Assembly: GCA_964016885.1 (NCBI GenBank)
Contig: OZ024743.1
Coordinates: forward strand, 268,646,001-268,710,000
Length of the DNA: 64,000 nucleotides
From: Eledone cirrhosa
Lineage: Eukaryota
Direction: 5' to 3'
Made by a program: the position numbers and the translations under genes. Positions 2,659-46,506 of this stretch are shown here, piece by piece. Under the pieces are notes generated by a model, which saw nothing but the letters and a program-made list of their open reading frames with translations, was not told where the DNA came from and did no database searches. How positions within the stretch are numbered: the first letter of the stretch is position 1; every line of letters starts with the position of its first letter.

Positions 2659-2725
<67 letters not shown>

Positions 2726-2732
<7 letters not shown>

Positions 2733-3416
2733 AGTATATCTACCAACATATATAAACAGATGTATACCCATGCTAGCAAATATATATGTTATGTCTTAGT
2801 ACTTTTGTGGTTCTATGCAAGGGGATGCAGAACAATTATATGAAAGACGTAAAATAAGAAAATTTTAAAAATTAAAAATTAACTTACTAAAATTTTCACT
2901 CCAACTAATTAGTTTCTGTAAGGGAGTAAATATAATTACGTAATGGAACTACAGAGAATTCCTTACGTCATCAGGGAGTCTATTCTCAGCTAAGTTCCCA
3001 GGCAATGCGCGGACACTAGGAATCCATATAAAAATAATAATTCAGTGGATGGAATAAAGCTAGCGGGGACTAAATTCCAGAGCACTGAAAACATTCACTG
3101 CCTACGCGGTCAGTGGGAAATTCTAAAGAATCAATCACGTGACACTGAGGTCAATCAGTGAGGAGTGGGGTGGTATTATGACAAGTGCCTACTACTACTA
3201 CCATGAACAATGGCAGTAAATTTTGGCAAGTTTTACTCAACAAATAATTTGGAGAAAAATATAGAGAATTATTATATCTACCAACATATGTATACCCATG
3301 CTAGCAAATATATATGTTATGCCTTAGTACCTTTGTGGTTCTATGCAGGGGGATGCAGAACAATTATATGAAAGACGTAAAATAAGAAAATTTTAAAAAT
3401 TAAAAATTAACTTACT
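2726..3416 (-). mobile_element. Retrozyme/pseudo-LTR-like element, ~1.3 units of ~530 bp
   Basis: ~160-bp direct repeat 2726-2888 / 3264-3416 with an HHR between the copies; abuts a (TA)n(GA)n tract. Confidence 0.75.
2898..2979 (-). ncRNA. Type I hammerhead ribozyme
   Basis: Minus strand: ACTCC-CTGATGA-C GTAAGG..CCTTAC A-GAAA-CTAATTAG-TT-GGAGT. Stem I 5 bp, stem II 6 bp, palindromic stem III, GUU site. Confidence 0.85.
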
Positions 3417-4061
3417 TAATATGTGTGTATGTCTGTGTGTGTGTGGATTATTGTTATTTGGCGTTGTTGAAAAGAGCAGTGGCCTTTGACCTGGCAATAA
3501 AAAACTGTAAACAAAATTTTTTCTGTACCCAGACCAAGGCACACACACACACAAGTTTGTGTTGTGTGTGTGTGGTTGTGTGTGTGTGTGCGTGCGCGTC
3601 TATGTATGTTTGTGTGTGTCTGTGTATCTATCTATGTATATATAAGAGATACAAATACTACTTTCTCACTGTCTCCAAGCTTCTCAATTCATTCGTTGCT
3701 AAGTATTTTATTTTGCTACGAGGTATTTTATTTTGCAAGGTACTATTTTTTCCCTGAGTTTGTGATTTCAGAGAAAAGTAAGAAATTCTTCATATTTTAC
3801 ATCTTTTGTATTTTGATTTTACAGTTCGAATTGTAGAATTGTTTATCCAATCAAAATATTACAACAGCTAACAGTGAAATATAGAATTTAAAAAAAAGCT
3901 TTTTCGACTGAAATTAAGTCTTTGAGAACATTCACGTCTATTTTTCAAAAATATATAATTTGAAATAGTTTGCTTTTGTTTTGCACTAAAACTTTTTTTG
4001 TATTTAATTCGTACGGGTATTTTTTAAAGATCTTTTTAAAGATTCTAACATAACTTGATTT

Positions 4062-6109: not shown

Positions 6110-6310
6110 GGGCAGGTGATGGATTGGCGGTCTCGGTAGTGGGTCAGACGACATACATTGCAGCATAGAGTTATAGTCCTTTACGGTCTGAGTTCAAATC
6201 CGCCGAGGTTAACTTTGCCTTTCATCCTTACAGGGTCGATAAAATAAAGCACCAGTAATGCACTGGGGTAATTGCTGACCTTTTATAAACAGTAGAAACA
6301 ACTATTATTA
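6110..6310 (+). mobile_element. tRNA-derived SINE with Deu/Nin-like core (dominant family in window)
   Basis: GGATTGGC..GGTAG head, GAGTTCAAATCC B-box, GCCTTTCATCCTT..GGGTCGATAAAATAAAG core, GTAGAAACAA(TTA)n tail. Confidence 0.85.
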
Positions 6311-14792: not shown

Positions 14793-17748
14793 TTCTCGTG
14801 TAGCACCCATCCACCATCTGAGTGAGTTTCTTGGTGAGTGTCCAAGTCTCAGACCCGTACAGCAGCACAGACTCCACTAGAGAAATGAAGAGGCGTATCT
14901 TCAGGTCCCCACGAAGGTCCGACTTCTATACCGATCTCAAACTGTGGCACGCCGCCCAGGCTTTGCTCTTTGTCTCAACCACATCATCTTCCGTATTCCC
15001 AAACTTTGCTCCCAAATACAGGAAGTCCTCAACTAATTCCAGGGGCTTCCCGCCTACATTAGTGATCCCCTCTGGCTTTTCAACATTCTCTACCAGACAT
15101 TTTGTCTTAGTCTCATTCATTCTCAGCCCCACACTCATCGACACAGTCTCAACTTCCTGCATCAAATCCTCTGCCCCTTCACTGCATTTGTCACCAAAAC
15201 TATGTCGTCGGCAAATTCAGCATCCGATATCTTTTTCGCCTTAACTCTCCTGCTCTGAGCCGGTGCTACAGAAAAGCCAGAGTCCTGGTGTTTCTCCAGT
15301 GCAAGGCGCATACAATAGTCCACTACGATGATAAAAAGGTAGGGAGCCAATGTACCTCCCTGGAGCACTCCAGCCAGTATCTCAAAGAACTCTGTCATCC
15401 CATCAGGTGTAATGACTTGGGCTTTGGTGTTGGTGTAGAGCAATGATATCAGGTCCACTATCTTCTTGGGGATTCCATAAGCCTGTAAGATCTTCATCAG
15501 ACAGTGACGGTCCACAGAATCAAAGGCCTTCCTAAAGTCAATGAAAACCATGACCGCAAGAAGGCACTTTGCTCTAGCTCCCTCTAATATCCTCCTAAGC
15601 ATCAGGATGTGACTGGTGGTTGATCTTCCCTCTCTGAAGCCGTTCTGGTTGTCCCTGAGCTTATTCTCCATCTCGGGATGGATCCTGTTAAGAATCATAC
15701 TGTTGAGGGTCTTTGCCACAAGTGACGTCAGTGAGGTCCCCCCCCCTCTGTAGTTGTTGATGTTAGAGAGATCTCCCTCCTTTGGCACTGGGACGATGTT
15801 ACTGAACCTCCACTGATTCGGGGCAACTCCTTTCTCCAGTGCCTGGTTACAGAACCCCAGGATGATATCAAAATCACATCTCTTCATCACCTCTGATGCT
15901 ACTATATCTTCTCCATGAGCCTTGCCCTCCTTGATCTTCTTATTGGCTCTCTCAAGCTCCTCTCTGGTGAAGGGCTCTGTCTGAATATCCAGTTCTTCAA
16001 ACAGCTGCCTGATCTCCCCAGTGTTCTGGGCTGTGGAGGCCGGCTCTCCTAGTAGGGTCCTAAAATGGTCTAGCCATTTCCCATCCTATCCTCGGGCCCT
16101 TTTCCATGGATCTAACTAGAACACCTTCTCTTCTTCCCTGTGATCTCGTTGATGATCATTCAGCTCCCTTACGTCTTACATCCAGAACTGCCAACCGCTC
16201 TCTCCACACTTCTGATCTTCTCTATCAGTGCCTCCTCTCTGGCCTCAGTGTAGGAGGTACAGAGTTCTTTCCTCATCACTTCCACATTCTCCTTCCTCTC
16301 CTCCGTAGGATAAGCATAGAATTGATCCTTGGCAGCTTTCGGGTGTTCTCTAGCTGCACACACTTTTGGGTCTGCAGAGCTGACGTGCTTTCTTTTGTTC
16401 TTTTTCCTCGGCACCAGGGTCACACTTGCTTCCACTACTGCATTGGTGAAGTATCCGTACCTCCTCGTCACACTCTCCTCATTCCATCCAATCTCTCTCT
16501 CCTCTGACTCTCCACACATAGCACTGAACTTGTTCCTCACTTCCACTGTGAACCTCTCCTGTAGCTTATCATCTTCATTGAAAGCTCCCCAGTCATAGAT
16601 TGCTCTCCGGGGCCGAGCCTTGCTCTTTCATAAGTTCACCCGGACCTCACTCATAACAAACTGGTAGTCACTACCCAGTGTACTGAAATAGTTGTATGGT
16701 TCTGTGTTCAGAACACTATTCCGACACTTTTTCCTCACCAGAATGAAATCAATCTGGGACTTGGGCAGGTGCATATCTGAGATGTAGGTCCACATCTACC
16801 TCAGATTCTTCCTAAACCTTAGGCTGGTCGCTATCAAATTCGCCTCCAGCAGGGTGTCTCAGTAGTCTTCCATTTCGGTTGGTGTTGTTATGGAAGTACC
16901 AGCAAGGATCTTCACTGCCCTCCTTAATCAGATGTGCATTGAAGTCCCCAGAACAAGCAGGATGTTGTGTGCTTGTGTGGTGTTGACAGCTCTACACACC
17001 TCCTCATGGAACTCTTCCGCACTCACATTACTGTCTCCCTCGGTTGGACTATAGGCTGAGATGACTGTCAGTCTTGGATTTTCATTGAAGATCACCCTCA
17101 ACACTCGCGAGGAGACAGGTATTATTTCCCTCACCAATAGACTGGTTTTTGTGCTGAAAACAAAGCCCACTCCTCCTACAGCAGCATTGGTCATGTTCTT
17201 TCCTGCCGATGTGGTGATGAGCTGGCTCATCTTCCCAATCATCACACTTCTCACGGGCTCATCGTATAGTATCCTGTGTTCTTCGACTGCAAGTATCTGT
17301 ATACCACTCTCCTCGAACACATGACCCAACTTCTCTCTCTTCTCCAGCGTCCGAATAGTCCTCACATGCAAAGTGTCCATTTTCATGGCTATTCTGCAGG
17401 ACAAAACTGCATTCTTTATATTTGTCTCAGAACAGCTGATCCATCATCTACTGGCCCTCCCTGTGGCTCTAAGCCATCAGTGTCATAACGACCAGACTGC
17501 TCCTTGATAGTGTAGTTAGGGGCTCTAACCCTAGTGCTGTTAGATAGTGCTGTTAGATATTTCTTTTCAATGGCTGACAATACCTTACCGGCTCCACTCG
17601 AATAAGGTAGTTATTTAACCCATAAATGGGGCCCTAACAGGTACTACTACTCCGGGCCGGAGCAGACCTGGGAGTTATGACAACAAAGGGGTAAGTCCAA
17701 ATTCTCCACAGTTCCTGAACTCCCGAACTGGAGCCTTGCCACTGGACA
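14793..17748 (-). mobile_element. RTE-clade LINE (APE endonuclease + RT), frameshifted, 3' end missing
   Basis: APE: GVGF, ISAYSPT, QIDFILV. RT: VPKEGD, NYRG, QNGFREGRST, FIDFRKAFDSV, GVLQGGTLAPYLF, FADDI, FLYLG, ESVLLYGSETW. Confidence 0.92.
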
Positions 17749-18043: not shown

Positions 18044-21000
18044 CTACAGGATGGTATACAGAGAAGGCCCATTTACACGAGCCATTCTCGCCACTATCAC
18101 CCACCTTTCATAAAACTGGCTGTGGCCAAGCACCTCTATCTCCATTCTTATCCTTCTTCCGAAGTGATATCGGAAGAAGTAGACCAGACTATGGCCAGAG
18201 AGGAAGTTGCCTGACCTCAGACCTTTCAATCGTGTCCACCAAACAACCTCTTTCAACATGGCTATTACGCACAGAAAAACCGCCTTTGCTTCCTTTGTGA
18301 AGAGGGGAGGCGGTTTGATTGTCATCACGGACTCGGCGGTCAATCGAATCGGCGCCACCCGCGACAGCAGTCGTTCGGCGTAGCCCCACAGATCAGCCAC
18401 GCCCGGAAATTGCACCAATGCGTGCGCAAGGGTTTCTTCGTGACGCACGCATCTAGGGCAAATCTTTTTCGAGGGATCCCTGCCCGGGCGCCCGTGTCTG
18501 TAGAGCCTCTCTCGAACGGGTAGAGCCCCCGGTAGCACTGCCAGGCTAGTGACTTCTGGAAGTTGTCCATTGGTCCCGGGCCGAAAGTCCTACCGAACAG
18601 GCTGGCCAGTTCGTCCTCTTCCATGTCCAGCGACTCTCCAAGGGTGTCATCGCCCCTGCTAGCCACCAGCCCTCTATAGAATGATGAGGTGGATTCTCCA
18701 CCGATGGCCTGGCCCGCTTGCCAGAGAGCCCTGAGCGCCTGAGCACACTCAGTGTGCCAGTCTCCCAGTTTTCCGGATCTTTGCTTGACCCAGGACTGCA
18801 GCTCGGTGAGCGAGACGAGTCTCGGAAAGGCTCGTTTCACGAACGGAGCCCACACCGGTTGACCAGTGAGGAATACCTGTAGGTGCCGTAGCCTTAATGC
18901 GTGCCTACGCATCATCAACCACGGCATCCCCAGCCCTCCTTTCGAATGTTGTTGGCAGCAGATGGATCTTCTCACCATAGGAGGGCACTTCTTCCAAAGA
19001 AATTGGAAGAGCATGCGTTCCATGGTGGTGAGTGTTTCCTTAGAGCAAGGCACGACAGTCAGGCGGTAGTAAGTGACGGACGCTATGTAAATGTTCGCCA
19101 CCTCCGCCCGGCCTTTTAGGGACAGCTTACACTTGGCCCATTTCTGGGTTAGTGCAAACACCTTGTTCGTAACCTCGTTCCAGTTCTTTTCCACCTGGAG
19201 GTCCGGTCCAAACCAGACCCCAAGCAACTTTACCGGGCCCTCCGTCCAGTGTCCGACGACACCGTCGGGAGGCATCGGTCTGCCTCTCCACGTTCCGAGT
19301 TGCAGCTCGATGGATTTTTCCCGGTTCAGTTTCGCTCCTGACCTTTCGTAATCCTCCAGTAAGGTACCGATCGCCTCGATCTCCGAGTCGGTCGATACCA
19401 TTACTGTTACGTCATCGGCGTAGGCCGACACCGCTTTGCTCAATCCTGGTTCCAGGTGGATACCCTGCAACAACTCCAACTTCCTCAGTAAAGGCTCGAG
19501 AGTCAATACGTACAGAAGGGAGGAGAGAGGGCACCCCTGTCGAATGGATCGTGTGATTTTTAACGGCTTCGAAAGGTAGCCGTTCACCTTGATCCTAGAA
19601 CAGATGTGGTTGCTATGTAAGACAGTGATCCAGCCTCTGAAAACAGGACCGAACCCAGCCGCCGCTAGCACCGCATCCAGGTAACCATGGTCGACCCTAT
19701 CGAAGGCCTTAGACTGATCCAAGTTGATCAGGGCCCCACCGAAGCCGGGTTTGTTGCCAACCCTCTCTATGATGTATCGCATGAGGTGGATGTTATCATG
19801 AATGGACCTGGATGGGATAGCACATGTCTGCGCATCTCCCACCAGGCTACCCACGACAAGCGCCAACCTCTTTGCTAATACCTTGGCCAAAATCTTTAAC
19901 TCTGTGTTTAGCAGGGTTATGGGCCGAAAATTATTTATACTATCCCCCTTGTTCTCGTCCTTCCTCACCAGCGAGACTACGCCCTTGGCTACAGAACAAG
20001 GAATTCTCCCGTTCTGCTGCCAATTGCAGTAGACCGCTTCGAGGAGTTCGGAGAAGAAGACCGGCATTGCTAAATAAAGTTCGTACGGTATACCATCGAG
20101 ACCTGGAGATTTGCGTCTGCTGCATTGGCTCAGCGCATCCCCGATCTCATCAGCCGAGATTGGTCCTTCGCAGGACTCTGCTTCTTCGCTCGAGAGACGC
20201 GGCAGGCCGTCGAGGTATGGACCGAAATCCACGTCCCCGCCCGGACTCTCGCCTCCCCCAAATAATCGGGCAAAGTGCCTTTGAAAGGCCTCGCACATCT
20301 GCTTAGGCTCCCGGATCTCCCGTCCATCCTCGTCTTGCAACGACCGGATGGTGGATCGATTTCCACTCTTAGCTTCTGTCACGCGGGCCCAGCCAACGGC
20401 TTTGGCCCCCTCATTACCTAGAGCACGTATTTTACTTCGAATGACGCAGCCTTCGTGCTTTGCATCGAAAAATTGGTTCAAGGCCGTCCTCGATGCCAGT
20501 ACTCTGGCCACATCTTCGCTCTTGATTGCCTCTTCTAATTTACCAGTTAATTCTTTCTCGTTTCTATTCCTATCGGCAGCTAACATCTTGCTATAACTTA
20601 TTGATTCTATTCTAATCTCTCTTTTGAGAGATGCCCACCATCGGTTGTTGACGATTGCACCCGTCAACCTCTCCTTAACTAATCTGCTAATCCGGTTTCT
20701 GTAAGTCTCTTTTGCCGGTAAAGACAAATTAAGTTTCCAGTAACCGGGACCCTGTTTATGTGTTTTCTCGAGATTGACTACGCAGGTCACTAATTTGTGA
20801 TCCGTATAGCCAACCGTGAGCATTTCTGGACAGCTTAATATGTCCCTATCCTTACTTCTAACTAAGAATCTATCTAAGTACGATCTAGATTGACCACTGT
20901 GGTTCGTCCAAGTCCAGGTAAGCACAGTTGGAAAATCTAGTCGATATCTATCGACCAAGTTAAAACGGTCGAGTAACCCCTTGAGGCTGTTACACCCCCC

Positions 21001-21477
21001 TCTATTAGGACATGCTCCTGCATAGTCCCAACGTGCATCTAGGATGTCATTCCAATCCCCCGCTAGAAGCAGGGAACGCGACGTTCCCAGAAAAGTCTCC
21101 AAACGCTGGAAGAAGTCGGGCCGTTCAGCTCCGAAAGGGGTGTAGACGGCGACTAGTCTCAAGGCCGCACCTTCACTACTGCCAACGTCTAGCACCAACA
21201 AACGACCCTCCGGGCCCGAGTGAACAACCTGTACGGCAAGACCCAGGTGTTTTTGCAGTAGTACGACAACCTCACCCCCACCTCCAGGTTGACAGAGAGA
21301 TGCATGCACCTCAAAGTCATCGAAGGTAGGGGCCAGCTGCCGCACGACGCTGATCCGAGTCTCACAGATAACCATTACATTTATACCACATGACCTGAGG
21401 TCATTTAGAAGCTTTGCTTGCTTCCAAGTTGAGCCCAGGCCACGTGCATTCAAACATCCTACTCTTAACACATCCAT
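18044..21477 (-). CDS. LINE ORF2: APE endonuclease, reverse transcriptase, C-terminal CCHC; one frameshift near 18530
   Basis: LNARGL, ETR, AGDWN, SYLDRF, TDH, SPGLDG, RPITLLN, LDQSKAFDRVDH, RQGCPLS, AYADD; CPRC..ETLAHAL in the 18044-18538 frame. Confidence 0.93.
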
Positions 21478-21510
21478 GTGGGCGGCAAAGCCAAAGGAGA
21501 GTGTAGAGAC

Positions 21511-22838: not shown

Positions 22839-23037
22839 GTATGTATACGTACATACATATATGTATACAGATGTACAGTAGTATGTATATATATACATAC
22901 ATGCACACATATATTATATATATGTACGTATGGGTTTACCGAACATTTATTATAATGTTCAGTTTGTGAACAAACAGCCCGAATTACGCCGTACAGTGTT
23001 CGGCAACCATCGTCGCCTTTTTGTTCAACACTGACAC

Positions 23038-23090
23038 AGGAACGATGTACTAGTTTCAAGCTTATTAGCTATCGTCAGCATAGTATACCT
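23038..23090 (-). ncRNA. Type I hammerhead ribozyme (mirror of 32077-32129); mutated copy at 23469-23521
   Basis: Reverse complement of AGG-TAT-ACTATG-CTGACGA-TAGCT-AATA-AGCTT-GAAA-CTAG-TA-CATCGT-T-CCT. Confidence 0.8.
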
Positions 23091-23661
23091 TCCTGTCAGA
23101 TAATTGAACGTTTGAAAGTATATACTTTCCTTATGCATATTAACGGCTGAGCAGGCTAATTTGCATATCGATTGAGTTAGTCGGCCGGGCGAACCGAAAA
23201 CTATAAATGGAAAAGGATGAAACGAAATTTTATTTCTCACTCTTAGTACGGCAGATACTTAAATGTAAGTATGTACACGTACATACACATATGTATACAG
23301 ACGTACAGTAGTATGTATATACATACATACATGTACACATATATATATATGCACGTATGGGTTTACCGAACATTTATTATAATGTTCCGTTTGTTTGTAA
23401 ACAAACAGCCCGAATTACGCCGTACAGTGTTCGGGAACCATCGACGGCTTTTTGTTCAACACTGACACAGGAACGATGTATTAGTTTCAAGCTTATTAGC
23501 TATCGTGAGCATCGTATACCTTCCTTACAAACAAGCCGAACATTATAATAAATGTTCGGTAAACCCATACGTATATGTATATGTGTGCATGTATGTATAT
23601 ATATATACATACTACTGTACGTATGTATACATATATGTATGTACGTATACATACATACATT

Positions 23662-23697
<36 letters not shown>

Positions 23698-23761
23698 TAT
23701 ATAAATGTATGTATGTATACGTACATACATATAAGTATACAGATGTACACTGGGTTTTACG

Positions 23762-23798
<37 letters not shown>

Positions 23799-23818
23799 AT
23801 ATATATATATATTTAATG

Positions 23819-23899
<81 letters not shown>

Positions 23900-24128
23900 A
23901 TAATAATAAATTTGAAGACTAAAATCCAAAGAGGGCTCAATAAGGATAAATATATATCAAATATAAGAACCAATAAATATATATATATATATATACATGG
24001 AAAGTTATATTTAAAATTGTTGGGTTACAACTAGTAAATATTTATAACTGATATAAAAGCACTCGACAAATATTTGGAGTATATTTACAGTATTAAATAA
24101 ATGGAAACTATATTTATAAAACCATATT

Positions 24129-24194
24129 TATTTCATTATATATATTTCGGGGATATCATATTAACAATATGCTATGCCTTCCTCAGACAAAATA
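24129..24194 (-). ncRNA. Hammerhead ribozyme in the 3' pseudo-LTR of the Penelope-like element (left arm)
   Basis: Mirror of 30959-31024. Confidence 0.8.
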
Positions 24195-25613
24195 CAATAT
24201 AAACAGTTTTATAGATAAATATATTCGACATACCGTTACAACACCGACTTCCATTTGAAGAGGTTTAAGCTGGCAGTGAAAAAATTTTACACAGAGAGAA
24301 AGAAAGAGAGAAAAAAAGAAAGAAAGACAGAAAACGAAGAAAAGGAAGAAAAAGAAGAAATGCATGGAACAAAATAGAGAGATGGAAAGATAGATAAAGC
24401 GAAGAACTTCATGTAAAGAAACAGAAAGAGATATATATATACAGAGAGAGAGGAAATAGAGATAAATACATATATATATAGAAAATTAGGTAGTGGGAGG
24501 TCATTTTGAGTAAATGTATCAATGATACATTTATTTATTTATTTATTTATTTAGCTCAAGTATTAATGTAAGGGAGATATATATATATAGAGAAAAAATA
24601 TATAGAGAGGAAAAAATAGAGAGAGAAAAAAAATTTAAAAATAGCCAGATATATTCGAGGCGTAAAAACCCTATGTATTAATGTATTAGCATTTATAAAA
24701 CTTACACTATATTGTAAATATCAGTATTCCTGAATGAGACAAGTATCCATAGTGTGTGAAAATTAATTATCTTATGTTTAGTTTTAAAAAAATTCATATG
24801 TTTATGTGACAGCTACAAACATCCATGCGAATCCACATGATTCACTCTGCAAACTCTAAGTTCACGGAAAACATTCTCAATGTGGTATAAAAATTTGAGC
24901 ATACATATATGTGTATTATTATTCCTGTCTTTACTCTTCAAGATTATCTATCAAGCAGAAATAGAGAGCAGATTTCAATATACTAATAAAAATATATATC
25001 AGAAACAAAACTAAAAAAATAAATAAATAAAAAGATAACAATAATAATAATAAGTAAAAATAAGTAATAATAAAATAGAAAACTAAAAAAATATTACCAA
25101 AGAATATTACATAATAAAAATATTACATATTAAAAATATTACGTATTAAAAAATATTACGTATTAAAAATTTACATATTAAAGATATTAAAAATAAAAAT
25201 AAAAAATAAAAAATAATTATAAAATACTACAATAATAAAAAATAAAAATAAAAATAAACCCCAAAGATCAACCCTTCAAAGTTAATTGACAATATATTGC
25301 CAAGTTCATTACAAGACAAAGCCAAAAATTATCTATCAAATCACATCTAGCAAAGATCATTTCAAAAAGTTTATGATGTCCAAATTGGTCTACATATGTT
25401 CTTATATTTAATATAGAAGTTTATCTAGTGTAAGGTTTATTCAAAAAATTTGGAGCATCAGCTTTTAGGGTAGCTTAATTTTTCATGAGGAATGTTTAAA
25501 TAAAAATAAAATAAAAATAAACAATAAAAAGAATAAAAAGAAGGAATCAAAAATTTAGGAATCAAAAATTTATCGGCTAGTTTCCCATATAAATATAAAT
25601 CAAACTAAATATA

Positions 25614-27469
25614 CTACATTTTAAATTTAAATTTATATTTAAACGTTGAGTTTAATCTATGTTTGCAACAACTGAATAAATTTGTCCGTAGGTTAAGGGA
25701 ATTTTTAGATTTTAGTATAAAGAATATCTCCTCTGCGCAGAGGTCACATGTCTCAGAGGATGAATTAAAAGGAATCCCTCTTGAGACTATATTCCAAGCC
25801 GTCGAATATCTAACGTTATCTAGCTTAAGTTGCCAGAGTACGCCTGATAGTGCCGTTGAAGATTTTTTACTTGGATCTGTGAAAGAATTCTTGTGGTTAT
25901 TATAGCGAAGTTTAAATTCCGTCGATGTGGAACCGACGTAGTTAAAAGAATTAGAGTCAGTATTAACATTACAATTGTATACTATATTTTTAACTAAGCA
26001 GTTGTTATTTAACGGACATTTAGATCTATCTCTACAGTTACATTTGTTAACTTGTATATTATTTATGCTATTATCACTAGGTTTTAAGTTCCTATTATTT
26101 ATTCTATTAATATTTTGTGCTAAATTTTTGGTGGATGAGTAGGTTAATTTAATTGTATGCCTATTGAAAATTGAGTGATACCTATGTGTTCTAGGGAAGC
26201 GATTATCAAGAGCTTTGAAAAATAATTTAGCGATGTGGGTTTTAATGTTTAGTGAGAAAGGGGGGGCAAACCAAATTATGTTCCTAGTTCTATTTCTTTT
26301 TTGGCCTTTGGAATTATTGTAATGCTTTCTATTATAGTTGTTAATGTTGTTGCCGTAATTAAAAAAGTTGTTACTTTGTTTAGTTTGTCTATCATTATCT
26401 ATGTACACAATCTTATCAGCATATCCTGCCCTAGCTAATGCTTCATTATAGTATTGGGCCTTTTCGTCGAAAATCTTTCTATTCGACGAGATCCTAGAGA
26501 TACGTTTTTGAACTGAGTTTACTATAGTGTTTTTGACAGATCTGGGGTGGTTAGAGTTAAAGTTGACATAGTTTAAGTTTTCATTCAACTTGTGAAAAGG
26601 ATAGTGGAGACATGTGTTGAGATTTAATGTTATATCTAGGAAATTGACTATTCTATGGTTGTTCTCAATTTCTATTTTAAGGTTAAAGTAATTAAAAAAT
26701 TTTGTAATTTGTTTACATTTTCTATTTAGTTCAGGGTTATTATTATTAATAAGTAAAAGCATGTCATCCCTATATAAACCTCCGGTAGTACCAGGTATTT
26801 TCCTATGTAGCGAATTGATTAAAAATAAGCCCACAAGGTCAGTTACCTGAGCTGAGTCGGAAGATCCCATAGTTATGTCAAAATTGCTATCTCTATCTGC
26901 TCTGGTCCATAATTTGTCATTAAATTCTATCAAAGTTTTCCTAGCCGATAATATAATATGCATTTCTTTGCTAGTTAGGTCAGTATGTTTGAATGCGTAA
27001 TTTAGTGCCTTATTTAGTAGACTAGGGGTAATAGAAGAATAATAGTTAGCTATATCAAGTTGAATAAACCTATTATTATTGTTATATTTAATTTGCCTAA
27101 ACCACTCAACAACCTCTCCAGTTCCCTTCCACAAGCTCAGGTTAGATACACAATCCAAGTTCTTAATTTGCTGTATCACCCTGTCAAGAATGTTTTTGCT
27201 TAATTTGCCCAGGTCCGATTTTGAAGGTGCGATCAATCTAACTGGCAGGTCATTTTCAAAATTCCTCTTGTGGTCCTTCATATTGATCTTCGGTTTCCTG
27301 GGCACGAAAGGTTGTGTTCTGTTCTCAATTTCCAACTCGTGCATTATACAAGATGCTTCGACATTCATTTTCTCAAGTTCGGCCTTATCTGCTACCTTGT
27401 ACTTTTTCCTCAGCTCTTTCAGTATGAGGCCATTATACATGTCTTTCCGCACTCCATAGAGGTTGTTGG
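25614..27469 (-). CDS. Penelope-like element polyprotein (RT + C-terminal GIY-YIG endonuclease), 5'-truncated, uninterrupted
   Basis: VRLIAP, LDIANYYSSI, TMGS, LYRDD, FLDITL, CxCx5C linker (CNCRDRSKC), IVY..YVGST..FKLRYNNH, CDLC..E, LN. Confidence 0.95.
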
Positions 27470-29539
27470 AGAATCAGGTGGCGTGCATTCCACTTTGATA
27501 AATCTAATGCAGACGAAAATGTCTCGGACTTAAACAAAGTTTTCAAATCTAAAAGAAATCCACCCCCTAACAAACTTTTATCTGACTTTGAAAACGATAT
27601 AATTTCTATCATACAAGGGGTCAAATTCAAGAGAAACTTCAAAGGCCAGGAATATCTGAAAGGCATTAAGGATAACATTGACAGCTTAGAGAAAACTGAG
27701 AAGATCTTGGTGAAATCTGACAAGACCAACAACCTCTATGGAGTGCGGAAAGACATGTATAGCAGATAAGGCCGAACTTGAGAAATGAATGTCGAAGCAT
27801 CTTGTATAATGCACGCGTTGGAAATTGAGAACAGAACACAACCTTTCGTGCCCAGGAAACCGAAGATCAATATGAAGGACCACAAGAGGAATTTTGAAAA
27901 TGACCTGCCAGTTAGATTGATCGCACCTTCAAAATCGGACCTGGGCAAATTAAGCAAAAACATTCTTGACAGGGTGATACAGCAAATTAAGAACTTGGAT
28001 TGTGTATCTAACCTGAGCTTGTGGAAGGGAACTGGAGAGGTTGTTGAGTGGTTTAGGCAAATTAAATATAACAATAATAATAGGTTTATTCAACTTGATA
28101 TAGCTAACTATTATTCTTCTATTACCCCTAGTCTACTAAATAAGGCACTAAATTACGCATTCAAACATACTGACCTAACTAGCAAAGAAATGCATATTAT
28201 ATTATCGGCTAGGAAAACTTTGATAGAATTTAATGACAAATTATGGACCAGAGCAGATAGAGATAGCAATTTTGACATAACTATGGGATCTTCCGACTCA
28301 GCTCAGGTAACTGACCTTGTGGGCTTATTTTTAATCAATTCGCTACATAGGAAAATACCTGGTACTACCGGAGGTTTATATAGGGATGACATGCTTTTAC
28401 TTATTAATAATAATAACCCTGAACTAAATAGAAAATGTAAACAAATTACAAAATTTTTTAATTACTTTAACCTTAAAATAGAAATTGAGAACAACCATAG
28501 AATAGTCAATTTCCTAGATATAACATTAAATCTCAACACATGTCTCCACTATCCTTTTCACAAGTTGAATGAAAACTTAAACTATGTCAACTTTAACTCT
28601 AACCACCCCAGATCTGTCAAAAACACTATAGTAAACTCAGTTCAAAAACGTATCTCTAGGATCTCGTCGAATAGAAAGATTTTCGACGAAAAGGCCCAAT
28701 ACTATAATGAAGCATTAGCTAGGGCAGGATATGCTGATAAGATTGTGTACATAGATAATGATAGACAAACTAAACAAAGTAACAACTTTTTTAATTACGG
28801 CAACAACATTAACAACTATAATAGAAAGCATTACAATAATTCCAAAGGCCAAAAAAGAAATAGAACTAGGAACATAATTTGGTTTGCCCCCCCTTTCTCA
28901 CTAAACATTAAAACCCACATCGCTAAATTATTTTTCAAAGCTCTTGATAATCGCTTCCCTAGAACACATAGGTATCACTCAATTTTCAATAGGCATACAA
29001 TTAAATTAACCTACTCATCCACCAAAAATTTAGCACAAAATATTAATAGAATAAATAATAGGAACTTAAAACCTAGTGATAATAGCATAAATAATATACA
29101 AGTTAACAAATGTAACTGTAGAGATAGATCTAAATGTCCGTTAAATAACAACTGCTTAGTTAAAAATATAGTATACAATTGTAATGTTAATACTGACTCT
29201 AATTCTTTTAACTACGTCGGTTCCACATCGACGGAATTTAAACTTCGCTATAATAACCACAAGAATTCTTTCACAGATCCAAGTAAAAAATCTTCAACGG
29301 CACTATCAGGCGTACTCTGGCAACTTAAGCTAGATAACGTTAGATATTCGACGGCTTGGAATATAGTCTCAAGAGGGATTCCTTTTAATTCATCCTCTGA
29401 GACATGTGACCTCTGCGCAGAGGAGATATTCTTTATACTAAAATCTAAAAATTCCCTTAACCTACGGACAAATTTATTCAGTTGTTGCAAACATAGATTA
29501 AACTCAACGTTTAAATATAAATTTAAATTTAAAATGTAG
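27470..29539 (+). CDS. Penelope-like element polyprotein, right-arm copy with ~85 extra N-terminal codons but disrupted at ~27762
   Basis: Spacer encodes RIRWRAFHF..LSDFEND..VKSDKTNNLY in frame. A ~41-bp deletion creates a TAA; the rest matches the left copy (ORF 27785-29539). Confidence 0.93.
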
Positions 29540-31253
29540 TATATTTAGTTTGATTTATATTTATATGGGAAACTAGCCGATAAATTTTTGATTCCTAAAT
29601 TTTTGATTCCTTCTTTTTATTCTTTTTATTGTTTATTTTTATTTTATTTTTATTTAAACATTCCTCATGAAAAATTAAGCTACCCTAAAAGCTGATGCTC
29701 CAAATTTTTTGAATAAACCTTACACTAGATAAACTTCTATATTAAATATAAGAACATATGTAGACCAATTTGGACATCATAAACTTTTTGAAATGATCTT
29801 TGCTAGATGTGATTTGATAGATAATTTTTGGCTTTGTCTTGTAATGAACTTGGCAATATATTGTCAATTAACTTTGAAGGGTTGATCTTTGGGGTTTATT
29901 TTTATTTTTATTTTTTATTATTGTAGTATTTTATAATTATTTTTTATTTTTTATTTTTATTTTTAATATCTTTAATATGTAAATTTTTAATACGTAATAT
30001 TTTTTAATACGTAATATTTTTAATATGTAATATTTTTATTATGTAATATTCTTTGGTAATATTTTTTTAGTTTTCTATTTTATTATTACTTATTTTTACT
30101 TATTATTATTATTGTTATCTTTTTATTTATTTATTTTTTTAGTTTTGTTTCTGATATATATTTTTATTAGTATATTGAAATCTTCTCTCTATTTCTGCTT
30201 GATAGATAATCTTGAAGAGTAAAGACAGGAATAATAATACACATATATGTATGCTCAAATTTTTATACCACATTGAGAATGTTTTCCGTGAACTTAGAGT
30301 TTGCAGAGTGAATCATGTGGATTCGCATGGATGTTTGTAGCTGTCACATAAACATATGAATTTTTTTAAAACTAAACATAAGATAATTAATTTTCACACA
30401 CTATGGATACTTGTCTCATTCAGGAATACTGATATTTACAATATAGTGTAAGTTTTATAAATGCTAATACATTAATACATAGGGTTTTTACGCCTCGAAT
30501 ATATCTGGCTATTTTTAAATTTTTTTTCTCTCTCTATTTTTTCCTCTCTATATATTTTTTCTCTATATATATATATCTCCCTTACATTAATACTTGAGCT
30601 AAATAAATAAATAAATAAATAAATGTATCATTGATACATTTACTCAAAATGACCTCCCACTACCTAATTTTCTATATATATATGTATTTATCTCTATTTC
30701 CTCTCTCTCTGTATATATATATCTCTTTCTGTTTCTTTACATGAAGTTCTTCGCTTTATCTATCTTTCCATCTCTCTATTTTGTTCCATGCATTTCTTCT
30801 TTTTCTTCCTTTTCTTCGTTTTCTGTCTTTCTTTCTTTTTTTCTCTCTTTCTTTCTCTCTGTGTAAAATTTTTTCACTGCCAGCTTAAACCTCTTCAAAT
30901 GGAAGTCGGTGTTGTAACGGTATGTCGAATATATTTATCTATAAAACTGTTTATATTGTATTTTGTCTGAGGAAGGCATAGCATATTGTTAATATGATAT
31001 CCCCGAAATATATATAATGAAATAAATATGGTTTTATAAATATAGTTTCCATTTATTTAATACTGTAAATATACTCCAAATATTTGTCGAGTGCTTTTAT
31101 ATCAGTTATAAATATTTACTAGTTGTAACCCAACAATTTTAAATATAACTTTCCATGTATATATATATATATATATTTATTGGTTCTTATATTTGATATA
31201 TATTTATCCTTATTGAGCCCTCTTTGGATTTTAGTCTTCAAATTTATTATTAT

Positions 31254-31258
<5 letters not shown>
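29540..31258 (+). mobile_element. Long AT-rich 3' region / pseudo-LTR of the Penelope-like element, ending in (TA)n
   Basis: Follows the stop codon and contains an HHR. The distal ~250 bp is homologous to the solo element at 41437-41760. Confidence 0.75.
30959..31024 (+). ncRNA. Type I hammerhead ribozyme of the Penelope-like pseudo-LTR
   Basis: TATTTTGT-CTGAGGA-AGG..CATATT-GTT-AATATG..CCC-GAAA-TATATA-TA-ATGAAATA. Stem I 8 bp with two G-U pairs, palindromic stem III. Confidence 0.8.
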
Positions 31259-31348
<90 letters not shown>

Positions 31349-31368
31349 CATTAAATATATATATATAT

Positions 31369-31405
<37 letters not shown>

Positions 31406-31469
31406 CGTAAAACCCAGTGTACATCTGTATACTTATATGTATGTACGTATACATACATACATTTATATA

Positions 31470-31505
<36 letters not shown>

Positions 31506-32076
31506 AATGTATGTATGTATACGTACATACATATATGTATACATACGTACAGTAGTATGTATATATATATACATACATGCACACATATACATATACGTAT
31601 GGGTTTACCGAACATTTATTATAATGTTCGGCTTGTTTGTAAGGAAGGTATACGATGCTCACGATAGCTAATAAGCTTGAAACTAATACATCGTTCCTGT
31701 GTCAGTGTTGAACAAAAAGCCGTCGATGGTTCCCGAACACTGTACGGCGTAATTCGGGCTGTTTGTTTACAAACAAACGGAACATTATAATAAATGTTCG
31801 GTAAACCCATACGTGCATATATATATATGTGTACATGTATGTATGTATATACATACTACTGTACGTCTGTATACATATGTGTATGTACGTGTACATACTT
31901 ACATTTAAGTATCTGCCGTACTAAGAGTGAGAAATAAAATTTCGTTTCATCCTTTTCCATTTATAGTTTTCGGTTCGCCCGGCCGACTAACTCAATCGAT
32001 ATGCAAATTAGCCTGCTCAGCCGTTAATATGCATAAGGAAAGTATATACTTTCAAACGTTCAATTATCTGACAGGA

Positions 32077-32129
32077 AGGTATACTATGCTGACGATAGCT
32101 AATAAGCTTGAAACTAGTACATCGTTCCT
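32077..32129 (+). ncRNA. Type I hammerhead ribozyme
   Basis: CTGACGA..GAAA-CTAG-TA; stem II AGCT/AGCT with AATA loop; one mismatch in stem I. Confidence 0.8.
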
Positions 32130-32491
32130 GTGTCAGTGTTGAACAAAAAGGCGACGATGGTTGCCGAACACTGTACGGCGTAATTCGGGCTGTTTGTTCA
32201 CAAACTGAACATTATAATAAATGTTCGGTAAACCCATACGTACATATATATAATATATGTGTGCATGTATGTATATATATACATACTACTGTACATCTGT
32301 ATACATATATGTATGTACGTATACATACTTACATTTAAGTATCAGCCGTACTAAGAGTGATAAGTGAAATTTCGTTTCATTCTTTTCCATTTATAGTTTT
32401 CGGTTCGCCCGGCCGACTAACTCACTCGATATGCAAATTAGGCTGCTCAGCCGTTAATATGCATAAGGAAACGTTCAATCATCTGACAGGA

Positions 32492-32544
32492 AGGTGTATG
32501 ATGCTGACGATAGCTAATAAGCTTGAAACTAGTACATCGTTCCT
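32492..32544 (+). ncRNA. Type I hammerhead ribozyme
   Basis: AGG-TGT-ATGATG-CTGACGA-TAGCT-AATA-AGCTT-GAAA-CTAG-TA-CATCGT-T-CCT. Confidence 0.85.
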
Positions 32545-32658
32545 GTGTCAGTGTTGAACAAAAAGGCGACGATGGTTGCCGAACACTGTACGGCGTAATT
32601 CGGGCTGTTTGTTCACAAACAAACCGAACATTATAATACATGTTCGGTAAACCCATAC

Positions 32659-32709
<51 letters not shown>

Positions 32710-32895
32710 CTTGTATGTATATATATACATACTATTGTACGTCTGTATACATATATGTATGTACGTATACATACTTACATTTAAGTATCAGCCGTACTAA
32801 GAGTGAGAAATGAAATTTAGTTTCATTCTTTTATATATATATATATATATATTGTTATACTTGGGGAGGGTCATATTTGTGTAATATTGCCAGAA

Positions 32896-41436: not shown

Positions 41437-41754
41437 ATTTAATTTGTTGGGATAAACAAGCTAAAATATTTTTATAACTGATATAAAGCACTCAAACAAA
41501 TTATTAGAGTAAATATACAATATATTAACAAATGGAAACTATATTTATAAAACGATATTTAACGGTTGGAGCTTCCTGGATAGCTCCAACCGTTAAGTTT
41601 GCATTTTTTCAGGGTATGTCAATATTTATTTATAAAACTAATCTGTATTATATTTTATCTGATGAAAGCGCACCATAATCTGCCTTGGTGGCCCTTGAAA
41701 TATGTATAATAGAATAAATATTGTTTTATAAATATAGTTTCCATTTGTTAATAT

Positions 41755-42289: not shown

Positions 42290-42473
42290 GTAAGCTGTGT
42301 CTAGGTGAATAGATAGTCCGCGTATGATTTGACGAATTTCGAGTGTGAGTACAGTTTATTTGGTAGGGGTCATGGGTACAGGTTTGCCTTCAGTTTAGGG
42401 TATTTGCTGATGGTGAGTAGAATGATTGCAGCAATAAATAACGTTCTTATTTGCATATATATTTATATATATC

Positions 42474-43380
42474 CCCCTCCGCTTCCGTGGTATTTTCTTC
42501 GGGGTTATAAGAGGCTTAGCTCTGTTTCTCGACCGTTATATCGCGTGACTATCTCCCCCTTCGCCTTTTGGGATTCTTTCTCACGTCGTGTAGACGCGTT
42601 CTTGAGACTAGTAAAATGAGGTATCCTCTTGATAATTCGGCAGACCTCGCAAGGACTCTATATCTTTATGATGTATTGTTTTTGTTTATGCCACGAAACT
42701 ACGTAGTCGAGGAATTTAGGAGCAGTTTAGGTATGATACATTTTATTACTAATTATATCTAAATGTTTCTTCTCTCTTTATAATGTATTTTTAACTCTGA
42801 TACTGGTTCAGTCTGGTTCAACCGGATTGGTCTGTCCCAGTCATTCATTGAGCAACATCGGTGAAGTTGGCACCCTTAACTCACGGTTGGGTGCGGATGC
42901 ATTCATGTATATGTGTGTGTCCGCATGTATCTGTGTTTCTAAATATATTGTTAATAACTCCCTCTTGTCGAGCAATCTTTGAGGTGTGGGGACTGCTGGA
43001 AAGCTTCCATTACTCATACTTCTCGCCTCCTTCACCACCTCTTCTACGGCTTCGATATAAATACGCCCTCCGCCTCCGTGGTATTTTCTTCGGGGTTATA
43101 ATAGGCTTAGCTCTGTTTCTCGACCGTTATATCGCGTGACTATCTCCCCCTCCGCCTTTTGGGATTCTTTCTCACGTCGTGTAGACGCGTTCTTGAGACT
43201 AGTAAAATGAGGTATCCTCTTGATAAGTCGGCAGACCTCGCAAGGACTCTATATCTTTATGATGTATTGTTTTTGTTTATGCCACGAAACTACGTAGTCG
43301 AGGAATTTAGGAGCAGTTTAGGTATGATACATTTTATTACTAATTATATCTAAATGTTTCTTCTCTCTTCATAATGTATA
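42474..43380 (+). mobile_element. Retrozyme family B: 1.5 units with a 591-bp period, one HHR per unit
   Basis: ~315-bp direct repeat 42474-42788 / 43066-43380; HHR motifs at 42624-42713 and 43215-43304. Confidence 0.85.
43215..43304 (+). ncRNA. Type I hammerhead ribozyme with U3-A8 core variant
   Basis: TCCTC-TTGATAA-GT(C)GGCA..TGCCAC-GAAA-CTACGTAG-TC-GAGGA. Confidence 0.8.
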
Positions 43381-43399
43381 TATATGTATATATATACAC

Positions 43400-43660
43400 A
43401 AGCAACCGATGTGTACTTAAGAAATTACTATATATTTTCAACCGTTCAGCAGACTCGCAGAGGTATGCAGTCCTGATGAAGGATAATGACCCAGAAACAT
43501 GTTGATTGTTCCTCAAATCCACTGTTGAACAAACAGTCGACGATCTGTCACCGGCACGGCACAGCGTCAAATCGTGCCGTTTGTCTACAAACGAATTGAA
43601 CATTATTATCAATGTTCGACATAACCCATACGTACATATGTATATACGTATATGTGTGTA
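43400..43660 (+). mobile_element. Highly diverged retrozyme family A relative with HHR at 43460-43514
   Basis: GAGG-TAT-GCAGTC-CTGATGA-AGGAT-AATG-ACCCA-GAAA-CATG-TT-GATTGT-T-CCTC; downstream GTTGAACAAA and AACATTAT..AATGTTCG..AACCCATACGTAC blocks shared with family A. Confidence 0.78.
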
Positions 43661-43940: not shown

Positions 43941-44121
43941 ATTGGCAGTATTGGTAGAGGGTCGGACGCCATGGTTTGACGTATAGAGTTACGGCCCTTG
44001 CCATTCTGAGTTCAAATCCCGCCAAGGTTAACTTTGCCTTTCATCCTTACGGGATCGATAAAATAAAGTACCAGTAATGCACTGTTTAATTGCTGGCCTT
44101 GTGCCTAAAGTAGAAACAACT
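43941..44121 (+). mobile_element. Deu/Nin-like tRNA SINE
   Basis: Family consensus match. Confidence 0.85.
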
Positions 44122-46189: not shown

Positions 46190-46489
46190 TAGTGAAAGAG
46201 TGAAGAATAACATGGTCGGCTGTACAAAAAGGGTTTTATTTCTAGTATTAACAATTGTTTCATTTATCAGGTGAGTCTAAAGGTCGCTAATCACTCGAAG
46301 TTGCCTCTCTCGACCTTAAATACAGTATTCTGATGATTTGATCAGAGGCAAACACTGTATTTAAGGTCGAGTGACGCAACTTTGAGTGATTAGCGGCCTT
46401 TAGACTCACCTGATCAATGAAACAATTGTTAATACTAGAAAAAAAAACCTTTTTGTACAGCCGACCATGTTATTCTACAATCTTTCACT
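46190..46489. mobile_element. 300-bp fold-back element ending in (TA)n
   Basis: 46190-46326 is the reverse complement of 46354-46489. Confidence 0.88.
46324..46436 (+). ncRNA. Type I hammerhead ribozyme with a 64-nt insert in loop II
   Basis: AGTATT-CTGATGA-T TTGATCAG..(64 nt)..CTGATCAA T-GAAA-CAATTG-TT-AATACT. Confidence 0.85.
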
Positions 46490-46506
46490 ATATATATATA
46501 TATATG

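Follow-up and report, generated by a model that had tools for sequence, protein, structure and literature searches.

A 1.5-unit copy of an abundant 591-bp repeat family with a family-wide U3-A8 hammerhead, likely a Penelope-dependent retrozyme-like element

INTRODUCTION

Natural hammerhead ribozymes in which the C3-G8 pair of the core is replaced by U3-A8 have been described before. Perreault and colleagues noted "several examples" of C3-G8 to U3-A8 covariation, in ribozymes that were already called active in vitro with reference to Przybilski and Hammann (2007), and the section on them states no tie to a retroelement family (Perreault 2011, PMC3088659); the history of the 3-8 pair is further supported by PMC3884650. 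Cervera and de la Pena (2014, PMC4209133) arrived at U3-A8 through homology with Cercyon Penelope-like elements, obtained ~1,300 Schistosoma mansoni matches with a U3-A8 descriptor, listed in their supplement one family with the identical UUGAUAA core, and reported that the minimal hammerheads of Penelope elements cleave weakly; a review covers how the hammerheads of Penelope elements cleave as dimers (PMC6765202). When one type III hammerhead was put through a full double-mutant scan, activity was rescued only by the G3-C8 swap (PMC9901934). The locus that we describe here shares with the S. mansoni ribozymes the type I topology, U3-A8, a helix I of 4-5 bp, a long helix II and a proposed dimeric action. 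In contrast, the S. mansoni motifs almost lack helix III, carry an extra nucleotide after A9 and are mostly single (PMC4209133); the present motif lacks that nucleotide, its palindrome is 10 nt long, its helix II is extended by 46 nt, and the repeat unit around it is ORF-less and measures 591 nt.

Retrozymes with canonical hammerheads and loop 1-loop 2 contacts, mostly of 170-400 nt, were described by Cervera and de la Pena (2020, PMC7229834), and animal retrozymes have since been interpreted as non-autonomous Penelope derivatives of 51-972 bp, in a survey that includes minimal motifs too and in which cleavage in vitro was seen for one of nine dimers of Xenopus retrozymes (Li, Clavereau and Pollet 2026, bioRxiv 10.64898/2026.07.22.740005). 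Common to these metazoan non-LTR retrozymes and the present element are ORF-less tandem units that each carry a type I hammerhead, a GC content below 50%, a self-paired monomer and a proposed Penelope helper, and a unit of 591 bp falls inside the range of the 2026 survey. The element differs in exceeding the usual 170-400 nt, in its non-canonical core and helices and in its 1.5-unit layout. For Penelope-like elements themselves, partial tandems have been described, as have 5' pieces in inverted orientation and insertion into microsatellites (Craig et al. 2021, PMC8557442), and non-autonomous ones such as MRC1 share with it a pseudo-LTR layout, head-to-tail copies and microsatellite targets; most Chlamys elements of that study are without canonical hammerheads, whereas the present family is without a matched autonomous partner.

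Our literature search, which covered titles and the starts of abstracts, with few subscription papers and no Repbase-type libraries, returned no cephalopod retrozyme and no U3-A8 retrozyme family. The combination of U3-A8, a long helix II, a 10-nt palindrome and a 591-nt unit, like the family itself, appears to be undescribed in the literature searched; every ingredient is known. An earlier note on this DNA had singled out the U3-A8 core as a compensatory change: the swap is real and is found throughout the family, but natural U3-A8 hammerheads had already been published (PMC3088659, PMC4209133), which lessens the surprise.

We examined a 64-kb window of Eledone cirrhosa DNA (the whole stretch analysed, 64,000 nt). 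Our preferred reading, to which we assign a probability of roughly 0.6, is that the locus holds 1.5 units of an abundant, ORF-less family of 591-bp repeats with a family-wide U3-A8 type I hammerhead, likely a non-autonomous, Penelope-dependent retrozyme-like element for which dimeric cleavage is predicted. The finding leaves hammerhead chemistry unchanged. It extends natural U3-A8 hammerheads, here present throughout a family, to one more animal lineage, indicates that scans for CUGANGA only undercount such families, and provides a test case for the role of hammerheads in Penelope-type mobilisation, with a short non-coding unit and a strong dimer prediction. It also offers a private, dead-looking U10.1 allele as a built-in control, and a similarly built C3-G8 element in the same window.

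RESULTS AND DISCUSSION

The element has an A-B-A layout of about one and a half units

Comparison of the window with itself revealed a direct repeat at offset 591, in which 42475-42788 matches 43066-43379 over 314 nt with 98.4% identity; these two copies of repeat A differ at five positions (42483, 42511, 42561, 42636 and 42779). The spacer between them, B (42790-43064, 275 nt), occurs once in the window, microsatellite noise aside. Thus, the element is A-B-A, counting as ~1.5 units and not as two full ones. The repeat at offset 591 is as the earlier note had reported, but what it called a tandem of units is a Penelope-style partial tandem. The features are as follows, run X1 being the main sequencing run considered below.

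42475-42788, + strand: repeat A copy 1 (pseudo-LTR-like); at 42561, 42636 and 42779 it has letters that nearly the whole depth of run X1 lacks
43066-43379, + strand: repeat A copy 2; has the family letter at the equivalents of 42561, 42636 and 42779, and its end is the family 3' end
42790-43064, + strand: spacer B; single in the window, belongs to the family, with a TATA-like patch at its end (43056-43063)
42455-42472, no strand: left (TA)n-like flank, likely target
43380-43397, no strand: right (TA)n-like flank, likely target; (AT)n also lies beyond this end in at least 7 run X1 contigs
42709-43299, + strand: 591-nt monomer as predicted from the two cuts; GC 42.5%, z-score of folding -4.1
42624-42713, + strand: type I hammerhead of copy 1; U3 at 42629, A8 at 42634, private U10.1 at 42636, predicted cut after 42708
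43215-43304, + strand: type I hammerhead of copy 2; U3 at 43220, A8 at 43225, intact G10.1-C11.1, predicted cut after 43299
42643-42688, + strand: 46-nt helix II extension of 8-bp and 6-bp helices; family polymorphisms at 42673 and 42667 compatible with the fold
42698-42707, + strand: palindromic helix III, 10 nt, predicted dimerisation site; copy 2 counterpart at 43289-43298

Both ends of the element coincide with AT-rich patches inside the unit itself, which points to microhomology with the target. The element contains no ORF longer than 95 codons (the longest stop-free frame has 95), and inspection of its six-frame translation yielded no coding remnant. Cut 1 lies 235 nt into the element, and 80 nt of it follow cut 2. 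If it was copied from RNA, DNA spanning both cut sites rules out the linear monomer as template, which would instead have been a circle read ~1.5 times or an uncleaved precursor.

Both copies carry a U3-A8 type I hammerhead with a palindromic helix III

Each A copy contains helix I (TCCTC/GAGGA), the core TTGATAA (at 42629 and 43220), helix II, GAAA and a GUC cleavage triplet, and in each helix III is formed by ACTACGTAGT, a perfect 10-nt palindrome. With UUGAUAA (U3-A8), GAAA, GUC and paired 3-8 and 15.1-16.1 positions, both are type I hammerhead motifs. The sizes of their helices (a 5-bp helix I, and a bulged helix II of 6 bp plus its extension) are non-canonical. Predicted cleavage falls after 42708 in copy 1 and after 43299 in copy 2, and position 10.1 is T in copy 1 and G in copy 2. 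The motif parts that the earlier note had read in both units (TCCTC, TTGATAA, GAAA, GAGGA) and all of the coordinates it gave were borne out, as were its predicted 591-nt monomer, delimited by these two cut sites, and its reading of G10.1-C11.1 as kept in copy 2 with a T in copy 1. The palindrome of helix III had been overlooked there.

A short helix I, a long helix II, G10.1-C11.1 and a palindromic helix III are the traits of Penelope-type minimal hammerheads, and all four are found here. The extra unpaired nucleotide of the minimal consensus (PMC4209133) is absent, G10.1 following A9 directly; the family's G10.1-C11.1 pair also led us to reject a register with an extra nucleotide at position 9a.

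The window was scanned with a descriptor (type I, helix I of at least 5 bp, palindromic helix III) that admitted all 16 letter combinations at positions 3 and 8. It gave 10 matches, 8 with C3-G8 and 2 with U3-A8, and none with the other 14 combinations, while U3-A8 or C3-G8 matches arose in 0 of 100 shuffles (dinucleotide-preserving, block-wise in 500-nt blocks; mean of 0.07 matches over all combinations). The descriptor was composed after the motif was known, and this control is best judged on the 8 other matches, all of which have the canonical pair. A looser scan of the window found 12 sites, 10 of them C3-G8.

Rfam gave no hammerhead match over the element at E values up to 10, a miss that is uninformative, as the canonical-core motif at 43473 was likewise missed; Rfam matches of miRNA type over the element were far under the gathering score. 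The expectation in the earlier note that consensus-based searches would miss this motif holds for CUGANGA descriptors, but a U3-A8 descriptor was employed in 2014 (PMC4209133) and the Rfam miss extends to a canonical core. Exact 23-nt patterns had 0 matches in metagenome contigs and 0 in viral contigs.

The U3-A8 core is the family state

To place the locus in its family, we compared contigs from sequencing runs with one unit (42474-43064) at 80% likeness and with a 5% reporting floor. The comparison covered four (X1, X5, X12 and X22) of the 24 runs that a run search returned, none of which was marked as RNA; the raw reads of X22, which bears another organism label, gave 0 reads, a count that carries no weight. 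In run X1, 1,186 contigs matched the unit, many of them at 90-99% identity, and all 30 bins were covered; this is a dispersed multi-copy family. None of the 24 substitution rows of this run falls at 42629 or 42634 (positions 3 and 8), a count to be read with the cautions that a missing row is not proof, that rare variants are lost in contigs and that the library type is unrecorded. At 42636, 2 nt from A8, G was found in the entire depth (391,517 of 391,517; 47 contigs). From this fully covered position and the lack of rows at 3 and 8, U3-A8 with G10.1 is the family state and the U10.1 of copy 1 is private decay. The earlier note had named a CTGATGA consensus with private decay at this locus as what would overturn its claim, and the run X1 consensus is not CTGATGA. 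Of the words in the window, a share of 0.60 is present in the organism of run X1, which may be a relative and not the same species. Since much of A is equally invariant in run X1, fixity of the core reflects a young family, and fixity alone does not show selection.

The contigs also bear on the layout. The joint from B to A (43064 to 42474) was present in at least 5 X1 contigs (depth 742), together with minor forms with inserted letters, and at least 7 X1 contigs end at 42788 and continue into (AT)n, as the window does. Mean summed depth in run X1 was ~2.2:1 for A over B, which fits A-B-A as one of the common forms, with the provisos that summed depth is not copy number and that B diverges more from the family than A. 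One 620-nt contig of run X5 carries the whole unit and closes on itself as a loop of ~589 nt, as is expected from tandem DNA or a circle alike. In run X12, one contig has the inverted start of A (42474-42500) joined head-to-head to 42723, 14 nt past the predicted cut.

Runs X5 and X12, which bear other organism labels, contain the element at a depth of 8-13, and all 13 substitutions in X5 are also X1 alleles. These copies may be carry-over, and we counted them neither as independent evidence nor as horizontal transfer. The element was likewise seen at a small share throughout runs X5-X20, under 16 other organism labels, for which the simplest explanation is again that a highly abundant sequence was carried over.

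Folding predicts cleavage as a dimer

The 46 nt that the earlier note had counted, correctly, as a long loop II are not a loop but a structured extension of the helix, folding into an 8-bp and a 6-bp helix with pair probabilities of 0.96-1.0. Two family polymorphisms fall within it: at 42673 a G to A allele (52%) replaces U-G by U-A pairing, and the other, a deletion of 2 nt (8%), is located in the hairpin loop.

Helix III had a probability of only 0.06-0.08 in the monomer, even in the isolated motif, and with this value below 0.1 monomeric cleavage was rejected as the main mode. When two copy 2 motifs were co-folded without constraint, we obtained a double hammerhead (-60.9 kcal/mol, compared to -47.2 kcal/mol for the two apart) in which helix I was exchanged between the motifs, helix III had 10 bp and the two cores stayed open. 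Given the palindromic helix III, cleavage is thus predicted to be dimeric, and the family motif would cleave as a dimer, working like a Penelope-type dimeric hammerhead element if these models hold. Co-folding of copy 1 with copy 2 left the copy 1 core misfolded, with only the copy 2 core folded. Since the copy 1 core, with U10.1, would serve cut 2, monomer release at this locus is likely impaired.

The whole-locus RNA (907 nt) gave a mixed picture. Inter-copy helix III formed with a probability of 0.83-0.99, but the active dimer (-251.9 kcal/mol) lay 12 kcal/mol above the free minimum (-264.0 kcal/mol), swapped helix I did not exceed a probability of 0.014, and the helix I of copy 2 faced competition from a hairpin with a probability of 0.78. 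The 591-nt monomer folded more stably than all 100 of 100 shuffles (z -4.1).

A proposed mechanism and its candidate helper

We propose that in a read-through RNA the two 10-nt palindromes would pair to form a 10-bp helix III, with helix I exchanged between the copies, and that each core would cut the GUC site of the other copy, U3-A8 maintaining the 3-8 pair. By analogy with known retrozymes (PMC7229834, PMC4209133), an RtcB-type ligase of the host would circularise the 591-nt product, ~1.5 turns of which would be copied into a (TA)n target by a Penelope-like RT/GIY-YIG protein. Judged by its sequence, the element has the structure of a non-LTR retrozyme, with non-coding tandem units and two type I hammerheads 591 nt apart in consecutive units; its cleavage and expression are predicted. 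A bolder version, which we hold to be doubtful, is that this is an abundant, recently mobile circular-RNA retrozyme family that has no ribozyme other than the U3-A8 hammerhead, and that the genome also harbours a C3-G8 family of identical architecture. If that were true, U3-A8 and C3-G8 would form a natural pair in which the identity of positions 3 and 8 tunes cleavage, such that dimeric precursors are cut and monomer circles are kept as templates for the Penelope reverse transcriptase.

The window holds a possible source of such a protein, a 585-codon ORF that occurs twice in opposite orientations (27782-29539, +; 25614-27473, -) and that we take to have RT-like and GIY-YIG-like motifs. Among 7,046 candidates it had 38 relatives, the named ones from Argonauta, Octopus and a coral; these names and the microsatellite load of the window point to a cephalopod host. 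A Pfam/PDB search with the ORF returned no match (0 Pfam families); its relatives did hit GIY-YIG and RVT_1 in Pfam, but below the cut-off. The 591-bp family showed no significant sequence link to this Penelope-like ORF region of the window (best 28 nt, E 0.014). The ORF is thus a candidate for the class of helper that the family might use, rather than its matched partner.

Alternative explanations

A first alternative is a family whose hammerhead cleaves little or nothing, a hitch-hiking relic in which a non-autonomous Penelope-type element spreads via uncleaved transcripts and in which U3-A8 goes back to the founder and owes its uniformity to the youth of the family. Uncleaved RNA accounts equally well for DNA that spans both cut sites, large parts of A vary as little as the core does, so that fixity alone is no proof of selection, and the active state is disfavoured in the whole-locus fold; moreover, U-A gave no rescue in the pairwise scan of one hammerhead (PMC9901934), and 8 of 9 tested retrozyme dimers were uncleaved (bioRxiv 10.64898/2026.07.22.740005). 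We nonetheless think a relic rather unlikely, because both halves of the 3-8 pair are altered together while all other core positions, G10.1-C11.1, helix I and the palindrome are intact, because the two helix II polymorphisms are compatible with its fold, and because natural U3-A8 recurs in other lineages, where such cores are reported to be active in vitro (PMC4209133, PMC3088659).

If the locus were the terminal (pseudo-LTR or 3') part of an autonomous Penelope-like element, present as two 5'-truncated pieces in tandem, the 591-nt unit would not be its own replicon. A random truncation junction should then be private to this locus, yet the A-to-B junction is covered at high depth, B is in all bins, the B-to-A joint recurs, and in one contig the entire unit forms a closed loop of ~589 nt. 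We consider this reading improbable, even with 57 X1 contigs that extend over the unit ends (and 75 loose ends beyond those listed), with partial tandems of truncated copies being the rule in Penelope-like elements (PMC8557442) and with U3-A8 having been described via homology with such an element (PMC4209133). An autonomous Penelope-like element was itself rejected, as the element has no RT/GIY-YIG ORF and no sequence link to the RT/GIY-YIG-like ORF of the window. The A-B-A layout, the 98.4% identity of the repeats and the ~2:1 depth would also suit a miniature LTR element (TRIM-like, or a plant-type LTR retrozyme) with A as the LTR, mobilised by an LTR retrotransposon. That is very improbable: the ends are not TG...CA, no purine tract precedes the second A, the hammerhead is type I and not type III as in plant LTR retrozymes (PMC7229834; bioRxiv 10.64898/2026.07.22.740005), and a short target duplication is undefinable within the (TA)n flanks. 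The LTR retrozyme and TRIM classes were rejected on ends, junctions and the type I hammerhead.

Neighbouring elements in the window

The 64 kb contain 12 hammerhead motifs altogether, and the focal element is flanked by remnants of related repeats. The 585-codon ORF lies in each arm of a 4.57-kb inverted duplication (22839-32841, 99.6% identity), a region with hammerheads at 24186 (-), 30967 (+) and 32504 (+) that, from its sequence, looks like a young Penelope-like insertion. Further C3-G8 type I motifs are at 41659 (+), 42113 (-), 43473 (+), 46330 (+), 9339 (-) and 59612 (-), the one at 46330 having an 82-nt helix II region and lying inside a 300-bp self-inverted repeat (46190-46490, +).

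A second ORF-less partial tandem, with a period of ~538 and (TC)n/(TA)n at its end, occupies 2714-3419 (-). It has a C3-G8 hammerhead at 2974 with a 5-bp helix I, a 51-nt helix II region and a 10-nt palindrome, and its first repeat begins ~10-12 nt beyond the predicted cut site. Homology between the 591-bp family and this 538-bp element was rejected (local score 24, compared to a shuffle mean of 22). Taken with the inverted X12 contig, the element hints, from two cases only, that some 5' ends may lie near the ribozyme cut.

Other repeats are also present. A 1,056-codon ORF at 18340-21510 (-) presumably has endonuclease-like and RT-like motifs, and a broken second ORF set at 15162-17443 (-) is one that we take to be LINE-like. 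A SINE-like dispersed repeat of ~180 bp (81-91% identity) is found at 43941-44119 and in at least 8 further places, for example at 6120, 10120, 33644, 48666, 52996 and 55862.
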